This document shows, piece after piece, positions 3,880 through 63,723 of a stretch of DNA of 64,000 nucleotides. The number at the start of each line of letters is the position of its first letter. Position 1 is the stretch's first letter. The position numbers were made by a program, and so were the translations under genes. The notes under the pieces are model-generated. The model was not told the DNA's origin and made no database searches. It saw only the letters and a program-made list of their open reading frames with translations. The stretch is from Ostreococcus lucimarinus (lineage: Eukaryota). The stretch is taken from NCBI GenBank assembly GCA_000092065.1, contig CP000587.1, one strand, 5' to 3'.

Positions 3880-4693
3880 TTTCGACCCCCCTCGCGCGTC
3901 GCGTCGAGTGCCCCGATCCCTTCGACGCCGCGCGTCGTCCTCGTTCCCGTCCCGCGCGCCCGCTCGTCGCGCGCCGCGCGCGCCGAAGCGCGTCACCGCG
4001 CGCGCGCCGCCCGCCCGGCGCGCCCGCCCGCGCGACGACGCGTCGTCGCGTCGTCGCCCCGCGCGACGCGCAGTGCCGACTTCGCCGACCGCGCGATCGC
4101 GCGATCGAGGTTCGTCGACGACCCTCGCGCGAGGTTCGACGCGCGCGATCGAACCTCGCGATTTCGGGGTCGATCGACGCGCGCGCCGACCGACGGCGAT
4201 CGCGCGATCGAGGTTCGTCGACGACCCTCGCGCGAGGTTCGACGCGCGCGATCGAACCTCGCGATTTCGGGGTCGATCGACGCGCGCGCCGACCGCGCGA
4301 TCGCGCCGACCGCGTCAGAACACCGCGCGCGTCGACGACCGTCATGCTGCGCGCGCTCGCGAGACGAGAGGTGCGAGGCGACGACGCGAGGCGACGCGAG
4401 GCGACGACGACGACGCGCGCGCGCGAGGCGAGGCGACGACGACGCGCGCGCGCGAGGCGACGCGCGAGACGTTCGTAGGGTTGGCGAACGATCGATCGCG
4501 GGGCGCGAGGGACGACGGCGACGCGCGACGGCGACGCGCGACGGCGACGCGAGGGCGAGGGCGAGGACTGACGGAGACGCGGTGTGGTTTCGGGGGGTAG
4601 GTTGGGGCGTTCGCGCGCGCGGCGCGACGGACGTACGCGGGGGACGCGGCGGCGCCGGCGACGGGGAGCTGGGACGCGATCAAGACGGAGGCG
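3880..4693. promoter_or_regulatory. Divergent (head-to-head) promoter region between the 2484-3875 gene and the ATP synthase d gene; repeat-rich, with a strand switch in G/C skew
   Basis: C-rich plus strand left of about 3900, G/A-rich plus strand from about 4340 to 4690. Contains the 4098-4297 tandem repeat and (CGAGGCGACG)n-like low-complexity tracts. Confidence 0.4.
4098..4297. repeat. Tandem duplication of a ~98-102 bp unit, each copy carrying a 12-bp perfect inverted repeat (cgcgaggttcga / tcgaacctcgcg) and a cgtcgacg palindrome
   Basis: Direct comparison of 4098-4195 with 4200-4297 shows the units are near-identical. Hairpin arms were read from the sequence. Confidence 0.8.
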
Positions 4694-32777: not shown

Positions 32778-33716
32778 CTAGTCTTCGCGCGCCGCGAGAG
32801 ATCGCCGACGCTTCGTCGGTGACGCGTCGAGCAGATGCAACCACTTCGTCGCCGCCAACGTCGCCGCGCCGGACGAATCGACGTCGGCGTATCGAGGCGA
32901 CGTCGCGACCGTCGTCAACTTTTGCGCGCAGTCGGCGTGCCATTCGTCCACGCGCGCGCTCAGAGAAGCCACCCACGCGCGACCCGCGTCGCCGTACCGC
33001 GAGATATACTTTTCTTTCACCTCCTCGGCTTCTCTACGAAGAAAATCCGCTTCGGCTTCGGCAACTTTCGCCCGACACTTGGCGCGAGCCTCCTCGAGCC
33101 TCGACTCCCGAGCGAGCTCGTCGTCGGCGTCGTCGACGAAACGCAAATCCCGCACGCCCGCCGCCCGTCGCGCCCGCGCGCACTCTCGCGCTAATTCTTT
33201 CACGCTTTCAACGTCGAATCGTCGCGAAATCGCGTTTCTCGACGCCAAGTCCACCGCGTCCAGAGCCCCTCGCAGCGCGCCTCTCGCTTCGTCGTCCTCC
33301 GCCTCCGCCTCCGCCGCCTCGTCGCGCGCCGCCTCCTCGTCGAACACCGCCACGTCGTCGTCTCCGCGCGCCGACCGCAACCGCGACGTCGATGACGCAC
33401 ACGACGTCGTCGTCGACGCCGCCGCGCCCTCCCACCCCCCGCCGTCGTCGTCGTCGAAATCCAACGCGCGCGCGACGCCTTCGCCGTCCCGTCGCGCGTC
33501 CCGCGTCGCCTTCCCCCCTACTTCCCAGATCCCGCCCGATCGCGCGCCCGCGCTGTCCAGATCCCCCGCCCACCGCCGCGCGCGTCCGTCGTCGTCGCCG
33601 TCGTCTCGCCACAGCCGAAACCGCGTCCCGCGTCCGTCGCCCGCCGTCGCCGCGCGCCCGTTCGCCTTCGCGCCCCGTCGCGTCGCGAATTCGGAGTAGT
33701 CGTCGCCCGCGTCCAT
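32778..33716 (-). CDS. Hypothetical acidic protein (Asp/Glu/Arg/Ala-rich), no family recognised
   Basis: ATG at 33716-33714. GC3-rich coding-like composition. C-terminal 120 aa are less biased (KYISRYGDAGRAWVASLSARVDEWHADCAQKL..). Confidence 0.4.
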   Translation of the reverse strand: MDAGDDYSEFATRRGAKANGRAATAGDGRGTRFRLWRDDGDDDGRARRWAGDLDSAGARSGGIWEVGGKATRDARRDGEGVARALDFDDDDGGGWEGAAASTTTSCASSTSRLRSARGDDDVAVFDEEAARDEAAEAEAEDDEARGALRGALDAVDLASRNAISRRFDVESVKELARECARARRAAGVRDLRFVDDADDELARESRLEEARAKCRAKVAEAEADFLRREAEEVKEKYISRYGDAGRAWVASLSARVDEWHADCAQKLTTVATSPRYADVDSSGAATLAATKWLHLLDASPTKRRRSLAARED

Positions 33717-33860
33717 CGCGTCGCGACGCCGGAGACGTCGACGCGTCGCGAAACGATTCGCGTCGCGTCGGCGCGTCGTCTCTGAACGCGCGCGCGTCCG
33801 TCTCTCGCCCGGCGACGCGCGACCCGTCGCGTCGACGCGGCGGTTTCAAACGCATCGCGT

Positions 33861-34075
33861 GTCCGACCGACCAATCTATGTACAAACAGTCACGTACCAA
33901 GTATACATCAACGTCGGTTTCGAACGCTCGCGGGTCCGACCGACCGATCTATGTACAAACAGTCACGTACCAAGTATACATCAACGTCGGTGTCGAACGC
34001 GTCGCGTGTCCGACCGACCGATACCGACCGATCTATGTACAAACAGTCACGTACCAAGTATACATCAACCGCACG
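33861..34075. repeat. Tandem repeat, ~68-bp unit x ~3.2, lower-GC, in the divergent promoter upstream of the ADP-glucose pyrophosphorylase gene
   Basis: Unit gtccgaccgaccgatctatgtacaaacagtcacgtaccaagtatacatcaacgtcggtgtcgaacgc read three times (33861-33928, 33935-34002, 34010-34075). The third copy has a ccgataccgacc insertion. Confidence 0.85.
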
Positions 34076-34433
34076 TACACTACTCACGAAAACGCCCATC
34101 GCGCGTAAAAGTCAAAAAAAAGCGACGCCCGCGCGGATATTTCGCGCGTCTCGACCCCCCCCCCGTCGAGTCGTGACTCGTCGTGACCCGATTTCGGGTG
34201 TCCGCGTCACCGCGTATCTCGACGGCCCGCGCGGCACACCGCGACGACGCGGCTCGACGACAGCCGACGCGCGACGCGCGCGACGCTCGACCGCGACGCG
34301 CGACGACACGGATTCGCGACCGAGGGTACGACGACGATAACGCGACCGCGCGACGGCGAATCGACGGCGCGATCGACGGCGATCGCGCGATCGATTAATC
34401 GCATCGATTCGCGTCGACGCGAGATCGAACGCG

Positions 34434-36140
34434 ATGATGACGGCGCGAGGCGCTTCGACGCGCGCGAACGGCGCGCGAACGACGCGTGGGAACGCGGGAA
34501 GGCGCGCGAGGGCGGAGGGACGACGGGGGGGGACGCGAGCGCGGAGCGCGGGGGGGCGATTCGACGCGAAGAGCGCGAACGCGACGGATTCGGAGACGAC
34601 GACGACGGCGGCGACGCGAGAGACGGTCGCGGAGGACGGTGATGGGGCGAATGAGGCGGTGCGGAGAGTGGCGGAGGATCACGTGCGGGCGATGGAGGCG
34701 CTGAAAGATGGTGGGGTGGGCGGGCGCGGGACGAGGAAGTCGAGGGAGGCGGCGTCGACGAGACGGGATTTTCGAGCGCGGGACGCGAGGTGCGTCGTGC
34801 TCGCGGGGGGGGCGGACGAGACGAATCCGTTGACGCGTGGGCGCGCGCGAAGTGCGGTGCATCTGGGGGGGGCGTATCGAGTGATTGATTTTCCTTTGAC
34901 GAATTTAATCAACTCGGGCATGCGTCAGGTGTACGTGCTGACGCAATACAACAGTCACTCGCTGGTGACGCACGTCAACCGCGCGTTCCCGATGGAGATG
35001 TTTGGAAACAACAACGAAGGGTTCGTAGAGGTGTTGCCGACGTCGCAGACGCGCGAGCACGGGGAGACGTGGTCGATGGGGAGCGCGGATTGCGTCGCGA
35101 GGCACCTCACGCACGGTTCGCTCACCAAGCATAGTTTCGACATGCGCTTGGAGGACGAGTGTTTGCAAAGACACGGATCGCTCGAAGCGTGCGCGGCGAA
35201 CCAAACCGACGGGATCACCATCGTGTTGGCCGCCGAGCAGTTGTACACGATGGACTTCAACAAGCTCTTGGAGGCGCACTTGAAGTCGGAAGCAGACGTC
35301 ACCGTCGCGACGTGCGATCAAGTCACGGCGGAGAACGCATCGAGATTGGGCATCATGGACGTCGACGAGCACACGTCGAGCATTTTATCCTTCATCGAGA
35401 AGCCTTCGGCCGATCAGTTGCTCGAGTTTATGCAGTGCTCGACGGAGAATGAGCTTCTCGAGTGCAAGCTCAACGCCAACATGGGCGTGTACGTCTTCAA
35501 CAACTCAGCCCTGGAAGAGCTTTTGAGAGATTCAAAGAATCCGGCGGAAGAACGACACGAATTCGGCAGGGACATCATTCCGCACGCGGTGAACGCGGGC
35601 TACGACGTACGTTCGTACAAGCACTCTGGTTATTGGAAGCCGCTTCGAACGCTCGCCGACATTTATGAGGCGAACATCTCAGTCGCCACCGGCGGCGACG
35701 CCGCGTCACTGATCGACTTTGATCGATTAGTGTACACGAAACCCAACTTTTTGCCGCCTAACACATTTTACGGATCTTCGTTGACCGAGCGTTCAATCAT
35801 TTCGGACGGGTGCGTCATTCGCGACGGCGCCAAAATCATCAACTCCATCGTCGGTCCGTGCACTGTGATCGACAAAAACGTCGATTTGGAAGGAGTCGTC
35901 GTGGTCGGTCGCGACGAAATCCTGAAGCGGTCCGGAGGGGACAAAGTCGCCGATATCGGCGCGAATACCATCATTCGTAAGTGCATGGTTGATTCCGACG
36001 CCGTCATCGGAGCCAACGTTCGCATTCTCAACGAGGCAGGCATTCAAGAACTCGATCGCACCGAGGATGGATACATCATCAGTGAAGGCATCGTCACCAT
36101 CCTCGGAGGCGCCGTGATCCCCGATGGGTTCACAATCTAA
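34434..36140 (+). CDS. Glucose-1-phosphate adenylyltransferase (ADP-glucose pyrophosphorylase) homolog with a degenerate N-terminal Gly-rich loop; Arg-rich transit peptide
   Basis: ATG at 34434. NTP_transferase core (VVLAGGADETNPLTRGRARSAVHLGGAYRVIDFPLTNLINSGMRQVYVLTQYNSHSL) and a C-terminal left-handed beta-helix (SIISDGCVIRDGAKIINSIVGPCTVI..). The canonical GGGxGTRL motif is replaced by GGADETNPL, and there are lineage-specific insertions. Confidence 0.8.
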   Translation: MMTARGASTRANGARTTRGNAGRRARAEGRRGGTRARSAGGRFDAKSANATDSETTTTAATRETVAEDGDGANEAVRRVAEDHVRAMEALKDGGVGGRGTRKSREAASTRRDFRARDARCVVLAGGADETNPLTRGRARSAVHLGGAYRVIDFPLTNLINSGMRQVYVLTQYNSHSLVTHVNRAFPMEMFGNNNEGFVEVLPTSQTREHGETWSMGSADCVARHLTHGSLTKHSFDMRLEDECLQRHGSLEACAANQTDGITIVLAAEQLYTMDFNKLLEAHLKSEADVTVATCDQVTAENASRLGIMDVDEHTSSILSFIEKPSADQLLEFMQCSTENELLECKLNANMGVYVFNNSALEELLRDSKNPAEERHEFGRDIIPHAVNAGYDVRSYKHSGYWKPLRTLADIYEANISVATGGDAASLIDFDRLVYTKPNFLPPNTFYGSSLTERSIISDGCVIRDGAKIINSIVGPCTVIDKNVDLEGVVVVGRDEILKRSGGDKVADIGANTIIRKCMVDSDAVIGANVRILNEAGIQELDRTEDGYIISEGIVTILGGAVIPDGFTI

Positions 36141-62804: not shown

Positions 62805-62850
62805 GGAGTGCGGCGCTCGACGAATTCAATTCTGTTACAAACGCGCGGCG

Positions 62851-63723
62851 TCAGCCCCAAATTTTCTTGGTCATCTCGTCAGGCGTCGGCTCGCTCGGGT
62901 ACGTGCCCAGCAACACGTACTGTTCTAATTCACGAGCTCCCGTGCGCTTGTACAACTCCCACTCGTTTTCGTAGTACGCGAAGCGCAGGGCGCCGTAAAT
63001 TGGGAAAAAATACGGCTTGCGATACAACAGCCGAAAATGGTACACCTCCTTCCACGCCGCGACGGCGTCCATGCGCTCCTTCCTCCCTCGCACCGACATC
63101 ACGTTCCCCGCGGACTGCACGTCGTCCAACCTCGGATTAATCATGATCATCGGCTTATCGCCCACGACCGCCTCCATCTCCTCGATGTACGGCAGCACCG
63201 AGTACCCCACGATGTTTTGCGGCTGCACCAATATGAAACAATCCGCCCCCTCGCCGTCCGCCGCGCCGATCCCACCGCTCGGGTCGATCATTCCCTCCGT
63301 CCCCGGTTCCCAATCCATCATCCCGAGCAATTTCGACACCCCGCTCAGGCTCAGCGGCAGCGCTTGAAACACTCCCTGTCCCATGCTTCGCTGCACGCAA
63401 ATCTTCACTCGCAACCCGTCGCGCGCCAGCGCCGCCGCCGTCTCGCGCACGAGCTCCAGCGTCGTCCCGACGCGATACACGTCACCGTTTACGTTCAGCT
63501 CCGGGAACTCGCTCTTGATCTTGATGCGTCGCTCGCGCGCCGTCACCGCGGCGACGATCGACTTCGTCGCGTCCTCGTAAAACCATCGCCGCGTCGCGCG
63601 CGCGTGCGGCACGTTGTTCAGCAGCGTCGGGACGTCGACGCCGGCGTTCGCGCGCGACTTGGGCGACGCGCGTCGCGCGCGCGCCGGCCGCGCGAACGCC
63701 GGCGCGGTCGTCGACGCGCGCAT
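62851..63723 (-). CDS. Conserved hypothetical protein, possibly plastid-targeted DUF1995-like
   Basis: Track start 63738 is GTG. ATG at 63723-63721 followed by an Ala/Arg/Thr-rich presequence. Family assignment is tentative. Confidence 0.5.
   Translation of the reverse strand: MRASTTAPAFARPARARRASPKSRANAGVDVPTLLNNVPHARATRRWFYEDATKSIVAAVTARERRIKIKSEFPELNVNGDVYRVGTTLELVRETAAALARDGLRVKICVQRSMGQGVFQALPLSLSGVSKLLGMMDWEPGTEGMIDPSGGIGAADGEGADCFILVQPQNIVGYSVLPYIEEMEAVVGDKPMIMINPRLDDVQSAGNVMSVRGRKERMDAVAAWKEVYHFRLLYRKPYFFPIYGALRFAYYENEWELYKRTGARELEQYVLLGTYPSEPTPDEMTKKIWG

Follow-up and report, generated by a model that had tools for sequence, protein, structure and literature searches.

The tandem array that lies between an uncharacterised gene and a divergently transcribed ADP-glucose pyrophosphorylase (AGPase) gene of AGPLU1 type in Ostreococcus lucimarinus is probably a locus-specific minisatellite of polymorphic copy number (a VNTR), situated in a bidirectional promoter. 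Its units are arranged head-to-tail and belong to the 10-100-bp class, their number varies among populations in short-read assemblies, and the DNA is non-coding with no constraint of frame; the segment is single-copy in some wild haplotypes and tandemly duplicated in others. Any effect of the array on the flanking genes would probably be modulatory, or it would be neutral. A literature search found no published description of this array in Ostreococcus. All positions given below refer to the window, i.e. the whole 64-kb stretch (64,000 nucleotides) of O. lucimarinus CCE9901 DNA that was analysed.

Results

The locus and its flanking genes

The array occupies the bidirectional intergenic region between the divergent gene (32778-33716, minus strand) and the AGPase gene (34434-36140), upstream of both as the original prediction had it, and both gene identities were confirmed. 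The features of the locus are as follows.

32778-33716, minus strand: divergent uncharacterised gene (XP_001418974.1, 312 amino acids, no Pfam match; conserved and syntenic in other Ostreococcus)
33839-33912: array unit 1, 74 bp, GC-rich linker GGCGGTTTCAAACGCATCGCGTGTCCGACCGACCAAT followed by the 37-nt core (sequence, TRF, repeat search)
33876-33912: core copy 1, CTATGTACAAACAGTCACGTACCAAGTATACATCAAC, 37 nt (GC 0.38; two GTAC and one CACGTAC)
33913-33985: array unit 2, 73 bp, with the type A junction ATCAAC / GTCGGTTTC (sequence, TRF, repeat search)
33949-33985: core copy 2, identical to copy 1
33986-34069: array unit 3, 84 bp, a type A unit with an extra 10-bp ACCGACCGAT (sequence, repeat search)
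34013-34032: 10-bp micro-duplication within unit 3, ACCGACCGAT twice (TRF period 10, 2.0 copies, 100%)
34033-34069: core copy 3, identical to copy 1
34070-34088: tail CGCACGTACACTACTCACG, single-copy in the window, with the fourth CACGTAC inside
34094-34154: invariant 61-nt block with an A-run and an evening element-like site, not part of the array (GCCCATCGCGCGTAAAAGTCAAAAAAAAGCGACGCCCGCGCGGATATTTCGCGCGTCTCGA; 0/61 segregating sites in 12 spanning haplotypes)
34135-34142, minus strand: evening element-like AAATATCC (GGATATTT on the plus strand), single-copy, 66 bp outside the array
34434-36140, plus strand: AGPase gene, large-subunit type, orthologue of O. tauri AGPLU1 (Pfam, PDB, cluster names, synteny)

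The divergent open reading frame is identical to XP_001418974.1, annotated as a 'predicted protein' of O. lucimarinus CCE9901, and a Pfam search with its 312-amino-acid product returned no domain match. The AGPase reading frame has the NTP_transferase domain (Pfam, E = 1.9e-35), the GlgC-type left-handed beta-helix (LbH_GLGC, E = 1.1e-25) and the homology to solved AGPases by which the enzyme is recognised, the PDB match being 1yp2, the potato AGPase small-subunit structure (E = 9.4e-76). Its O. tauri relative, XP_003080434.2, is 63% identical, belongs to a cluster named 'AGPLU1' or 'ADP-glucose pyrophosphorylase large subunit 1', and lies on chromosome 7 in the gene order of the window, i.e. 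NOT1, a small unknown gene (minus), AGPase (plus), a TPT transporter (minus), a histone-fold protein and DUF3754; this synteny from NOT1 to DUF3754 extends to five other Ostreococcus-like lineages. AGPase has been handled as a rate-limiting, transcriptionally controlled step (PMC3056741), and the O. tauri APL transcript (ostta07g03440), here inferred to be that of AGPLU1, is reported to peak at ZT8 in long days (PMC12216367), which makes the premise that this promoter is under diel control reasonable by orthology.

The AGPase of 34434-36140 is a divergent paralogue of the large-subunit type, with ~35% identity to bacterial and plant AGPases. About 115 residues precede the part that aligns to solved AGPases, and this Arg/Ala-rich N-terminus resembles a transit peptide. 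The NTP_transferase domain was matched in two separate stretches. In one syntenic contig from another lineage (L008, an 829-kb ENA contig) the gene calls at the locus are broken into many short reading frames, with NOT1, AGPase and DUF3754 all split, consistent with frameshift errors of long-read assembly.

Structure and composition of the array

TRF reported a single array at 33841-34069 (period 73, 3.0 copies, 89% matches, score 319) and the repeat search returned three head-to-tail copies with start-to-start spacings of 73 and 84 bp; the whole array spans 33839-34069 in units of 74, 73 and 84 bp. The 20-mer TGTACAAACAGTCACGTACC has three exact matches in the window, all within the array, where shuffled sequence gives 0. 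The presence of a tandem array is thus upheld, but its dimensions differ from those first proposed: the unit measures 73-74 bp (84 bp for the third) and not ~68 bp, TRF gives 3.0 copies in place of 'three and a bit', and the array starts ~20 bp to the left of 33861. Its predicted distance of ~360-570 bp from the AGPase ATG (34434) agrees well with the 365-595 bp measured, while the ATG of the divergent gene (33716) is nearer, at ~125 bp.

The third unit is the longer because ACCGACCGAT is doubled inside it, and the same 84-bp spacing was found in three metagenome contigs (L017, L030, L031). This 10-bp duplication is polymorphic on its own and occurs even in a single-copy allele (L026). The type A junction of unit 2 recurs in six independent metagenome contigs (L002, L014, L016, L018, L019, L028), and the tail CGCACGTACACTACTCACG, which stands once in the window, forms part of an alternative duplicated unit of 90 bp (type B) in L011, L013 and L024. 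An in-frame stop separates the array from the AGPase ATG, and the units are non-coding since lengths of 73, 74, 84 and 90 bp are not consistently multiples of 3.

The GC content of the array is 0.51, against 0.76 and 0.67 in its flanks and a window mean of 0.60, so that the description of it as conspicuously less GC-rich than its surroundings is true locally; the window as a whole contains 52 patches with GC < 0.45, and by that measure the low GC of the array is unexceptional. A low-GC centre is present also in the orthologous promoters of other species. The 'gtac...gtac near-palindrome' ascribed to the unit proved to be merely two self-complementary GTAC tetramers: the repeat search found no inverted repeats in the core, and the predicted DNA fold was no better than that of shuffles (z = 0.72 and 0.23).

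It is exceedingly improbable that the units are small RNA genes, whether tRNA-like, snoRNA or another ncRNA cluster. RNA genes are often tandemly arranged, a unit of 73-90 nt falls within the size range of tRNAs and C/D snoRNAs, and the linker GGTTTCGAAC loosely resembles a tRNA T-loop; however, this reading was rejected because ARAGORN (0 matches), Rfam (no match overlapping the core at E <= 1) and DNA folding (energy no better than shuffles) all came back blank. Furthermore, inspection of both strands showed neither a C box (RUGAUGA) nor a D box (CUGA), and the boundaries of the unit differ between type A and type B alleles.

The repeat is found at a single locus

Locus specificity was assessed on the 64-kb window together with collections of metagenome and viral contigs. 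Outside the array there is no copy of the core 20-mer in the window, nor any other match there, other promoters included, to three sub-motifs of the core with 2-3 mismatches allowed. Among 2.9 million viral contigs the 20-mer had 0 matches, and in the metagenome collection it was carried by 3 contigs, all of which represent this locus with the same two flanking genes. As one locus was recovered three times, N genomic copies should yield ~3N contigs, and the data fit an N of ~1.

These searches bear directly on a possible origin of the array from a dispersed satellite or a transposable element, e.g. a MITE, part of which landed in the promoter by chance. The GC content of the array, below that of its immediate flanks, is a possible mark of foreign or mobile DNA, and the tandem layout is one that dispersed satellites and interspersed repeats share, but the array occurs at a single locus only, with no further copies in the window, the viral contigs or the metagenome contigs. 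Moreover, terminal inverted repeats are absent and no inverted repeat involves the core; every haplotype compared keeps at least one copy within the same unique flanks, so no empty-site allele was seen; and the low-GC centre is shared by the orthologous promoters of other species. A satellite or transposable element is accordingly very improbable and was rejected on the 20-mer and sub-motif searches, which found this locus only, and the hundreds of copies irrespective of gene context that would mark a generic satellite were not seen in the window, viral or metagenome contigs.

Copy number varies among wild haplotypes

Contigs encoding an AGPase or neighbour protein at least 99% identical to that of the window were collected from assemblies of many marine samples (ENA, JGI and Logan), and the three contigs found by the 20-mer pattern scan were added to the comparison. 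The intergenic regions of these near-identical contigs align base-for-base except at the array. Across 19 spanning contigs and the reference, the core is present once in six, twice in twelve and three times in the reference, with the caveat that short-read metagenome assemblies may collapse repeats or yield chimeric haplotypes. The alleles are listed below.

1 copy: L001, L003, L015, L026, L029, L032
2 copies, 73/74 bp apart (type A): L002, L014, L016, L018, L019, L025, L028
2 copies, 84 bp apart (type A with the 10-bp duplication): L017, L030
2 copies, 90 bp apart (type B): L011, L013, L024
3 copies: reference window
At least 4 copies (open-ended; the contig stops inside the fourth unit): L031

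The caveat is mitigated, albeit not removed, by k-mer sizes of 119-141 that exceed the unit length, by SNPs that distinguish units, by the unique type B junction and by identical alleles across samples; at k = 119-141 an array of no more than 2 copies should be assembled correctly. Some alleles were recovered in identical form by independent assembly of separate samples (L002 = L018; L016 = L019). An origin of the multi-copy array in misassembly of the reference genome has next to no probability and is refuted by these independent assemblies, in which multi-copy arrays with the same junctions appear in many samples, including the contig with at least four copies. Two contigs that might have been taken for unusual alleles, one with 'no core' (L027) and one with a 'long span' (L015), turned out to contain scaffold N-gaps instead, the gap in L027 lying over the array.

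Two duplication architectures, with units of 73/84 bp and of 90 bp, have the core in common. In type B the duplicated segment continues through CGCACG.ACACTACTCACG, placing its right breakpoint 19 nt further right than that of type A, and type A is not derivable from type B by clean deletion because the junctions differ (ATCAAC / G[T/G]C / GG... in type A, ...CTCACG / GG... in type B). The simplest reading of these junctions would be at least two duplication events sharing the core. The allele of L016 and L019 equals the reference allele minus its third unit, which indicates stepwise change on one background. The spread of 1, 2, 3 or at least 4 copies across natural populations marks the multi-copy state as dispensable and recent.

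A GGTGTC variant is common to the later units of both architectures (L011, L013, L024, L025, L031 and window positions 33986-33995), the first unit always having GGTTTC, and this sharing suggests exchange between alleles or an unsampled ancestral allele. Recombination or chimeric consensus may account for the shuffled SNP backgrounds of the flanks. The part of the intergenic region richest in indels and SNPs among the haplotypes is the GC-rich stretch at 34217-34300, which lies between the invariant block and the AGPase ATG and overlaps low-complexity CGACG repeats.

Many contigs from metagenome and Logan assemblies end at or in the array (L004, L005, L006, L012, L020-L023, L031, L033). Contig breaks are the expected behaviour at a repeat, and the VNTR is a recurrent assembly breakpoint. 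One of the Logan contigs, L006, begins exactly 30 nt inside the last unit, an offset equal to k-1 if the Logan assembler used k = 31.

Motif content and conservation of the core

The GTAC tetramer is the core of SBP-domain binding sites and ACGT that of bZIP and bHLH sites. The single-copy equivalent of the array (91 nt) has GTAC at three sites and ACGT at two, among them two CACGTAC heptamers. In the reference array with its tail there are 7 GTAC (0.8 expected from the density in the window) and 4 CACGTA (0.06 expected). Over the whole window CACGTAC/GTACGTG occurs 22 times against 5.6 in dinucleotide shuffles, but this excess is not specific to promoters, since the density of CACGTAC is the same in coding and in intergenic DNA (0.28/kb each); it is probably an effect of codon usage or composition, and CACGTAC was rejected as a general promoter motif on the same grounds. 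Factor binding to the core is put forward as a hypothesis. Elsewhere in the window, another divergent intergenic region (62805-63036) has an inverted CACGTAC pair (62899-62905 and 62914-62920), TGTACA at 62949 and GTAGTAC, a motif vocabulary that matches that of the array core.

Conservation was assessed by Smith-Waterman alignment of the core, with shuffles as control, to the corresponding intergenic DNA of six syntenic lineages: O. tauri (L034), two from the O. mediterraneus clade (L036, L009) and three others (L007, L008, L010). Five of the six syntenic Ostreococcus promoters gave scores within the range of shuffles (114, 41, 60, 191 and 157 of 200 shuffles scored at least as high), and the best match, 14/15 positions of ACCGATCTAT[G/C]TACA in L036-L038, was equalled or exceeded by 7/200 shuffles, a marginal value uncorrected for six tests. 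That match (ACCGATCTATCTACA, L036-L038 ~1667-1681) lies in an O. mediterraneus-like orthologous promoter; it corresponds to the left core edge and has the same orientation. A scan for shared k-mers across species was dominated by CG-rich background, tandem repeats with a score >= 60 are lacking upstream of the O. tauri and O. mediterraneus orthologues, and CACGTAC is absent from all six orthologous promoters. The absence of core conservation is weak evidence against function, because the intergenic DNA is largely unalignable among lineages whose AGPase orthologues have 59-68% amino-acid identity; equally, in this comparison it lends function no support. Within the species, 5/37 sites of the core segregate among 12 spanning haplotypes, against 0/61 in the adjacent block, which would indicate moderate constraint on the core at most.

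The original prediction took the array for a plausible clock- or light-responsive enhancer. On such a reading, the repeated CACGTAC (bZIP/bHLH-type) and GTAC (SBP-type) candidate sites would drive diel transcription of AGPase and/or its neighbour. In favour of this are the proximal-promoter placement and locus specificity of the array, its enrichment in both motifs, the diel rhythm of the O. tauri orthologue APL, and the enrichment of bZIP motifs, with others, in diel clusters of O. tauri (PMC12216367). The core is also perfectly identical in the three reference copies despite divergence of the linkers, and is fairly well kept across alleles, an observation that counts against the minisatellite interpretation too. 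However, alleles of 1 to at least 4 copies segregate in nature, the core shows no conservation beyond chance in the syntenic promoters (O. tauri, O. mediterraneus clade and other lineages), and CACGTAC is missing from all six orthologues and no denser in intergenic than in coding DNA of the window. Furthermore, the sub-motifs of the unit do not recur in other promoters of the window, and the unit contains neither an evening element nor a CCA1 site (AAAATATCT, AAATATCT or AAAAATCT), the conserved evening element-like site being outside the array. The enhancer is therefore unsupported and, on balance, unlikely, and on these comparisons the conserved diel element of the promoter is not to be sought in the array.

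A conserved evening element-like site outside the array

The 8-mer AAATATCC within the invariant block differs by one base from the evening element AAATATCT, which is enriched in evening-phased genes of O. tauri, including starch genes (PMC12216367). It is present also upstream of the AGPLU1 orthologue in O. tauri (L034, position 2093) and the O. mediterraneus clade (L036, position 2322; L009, position 3516), against a background of 2 matches in 109 kb and with per-region shuffle probabilities of 0.0005-0.02; as L009 and L036 share one clade, this conservation amounts to three independent lineages. The sole AAATATC of the intergenic region lies at 34136-34142, outside the array. Across the whole window AAATATC is not significantly enriched (7 against 3.6 expected), and the signal comes only from the comparison of orthologous promoters. 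In one allele (L013) a 10-nt deletion turns the site into a perfect AAATATCT.

In a transcriptome contig of O. mediterraneus the homologous site is AAAATATCG, ~120 nt inside a transcript with its 5' end ~313 nt before the ATG. By analogy, transcription of the O. lucimarinus AGPase gene would start near the A-run, at ~34106-34125, which would put the array at roughly -40 to -280, in the proximal promoter, and the evening element-like site in the 5'UTR; the block at 34094-34154 is likely to be the core promoter or the start of the 5'UTR of the AGPase gene. This promoter resembles those of other Ostreococcus and plant genes with evening elements of the CCA1/RVE type (PMC12216367) in having an evening element-like AAATATCC that is shared with the O. 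tauri and O. mediterraneus orthologues, but that site is single-copy and outside the array, and no evening element or CCA1 site is repeated with the unit. Conservation across lineages would make it a better candidate for diel control than the array, and for the diel regulation of this promoter it is the more promising lead.

Discussion

The interpretation of the array as a copy-number-polymorphic minisatellite can be framed as a sequence of events. An initial non-homologous tandem duplication, with junction microhomology of at most 1 nt, would have occurred twice with different breakpoints, giving in one case the 73/74-bp unit (84 bp with the 10-bp duplication) and in the other the 90-bp unit. 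Replication slippage or unequal exchange between units would later have changed the copy number, to between 1 and at least 4. Each added unit would contribute two GTAC and one CACGTAC (ACGT-core), a further ACGT per type A junction and ~47 nt of AT-richer DNA, and would put an extra 73-90 bp between the start of the divergent gene and the core promoter of AGPase.

Promoter VNTRs are well known, and the array adds an example of them. The unit number of the human INS and MAOA promoter VNTRs varies and tunes transcription. As far as the summary of Vinces et al. (2009) in PMC3887541 goes, the same is true of tandem repeats in yeast promoters. The array is like these in having head-to-tail units of tens of bp in a promoter, in that its units are AT-richer than their surroundings and locus-specific, and in that copy number is polymorphic among natural genotypes. 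Most yeast promoter repeats have a unit shorter than the 73-90 bp found here, and two further differences are the two duplication architectures on one core and the host, a picoeukaryote whose very compact genome leaves little intergenic space. On the analogy with promoter VNTRs, copy number would be expected at most to shift the expression of one or both flanking genes quantitatively, or to have no effect.

The SV40 72-bp repeat is a viral tandem-repeat enhancer and provides a second comparison, since it is likewise a promoter-proximal segment of ~72-74 bp with factor-site-like motifs that is found once or duplicated among natural variants. In contrast, the array is at most a putative enhancer, is cellular and not viral, has no known sequence similarity to the SV40 repeat and gave 0 matches in viral contigs.

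Recurrent duplications that share a core could point to selection, beyond mutational instability. On such a reading, a core of ~60 bp was duplicated independently at least twice and amplified to at least four copies under selection for a tunable dosage of GTAC/CACGTAC that sets the expression of AGPLU1 or its neighbour, i.e. an 'enhancer-dosage' polymorphism, and this is regarded as doubtful.

The minisatellite is of modest interest, because one core has been duplicated more than once upstream of a rate-limiting starch gene and because its alleles are legible in ocean metagenomes. If copy number alters AGPLU1 expression, it would constitute simple, genotypable, standing cis-regulatory variation in a globally abundant picoalga at the committed step of starch storage, and available pairs of ocean metagenomes and metatranscriptomes would allow alleles to be set against transcript levels. 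Even if neutral, the array is a useful population marker for clade-A Ostreococcus and explains the recurrent breaks of metagenome contigs at this position.

A second long-period tandem repeat was observed in a GC-rich stretch of the window at 4083-4341 (103 bp, 2.2-2.6 copies, matches up to 96%, TRF score 430), and it may be another polymorphic minisatellite.
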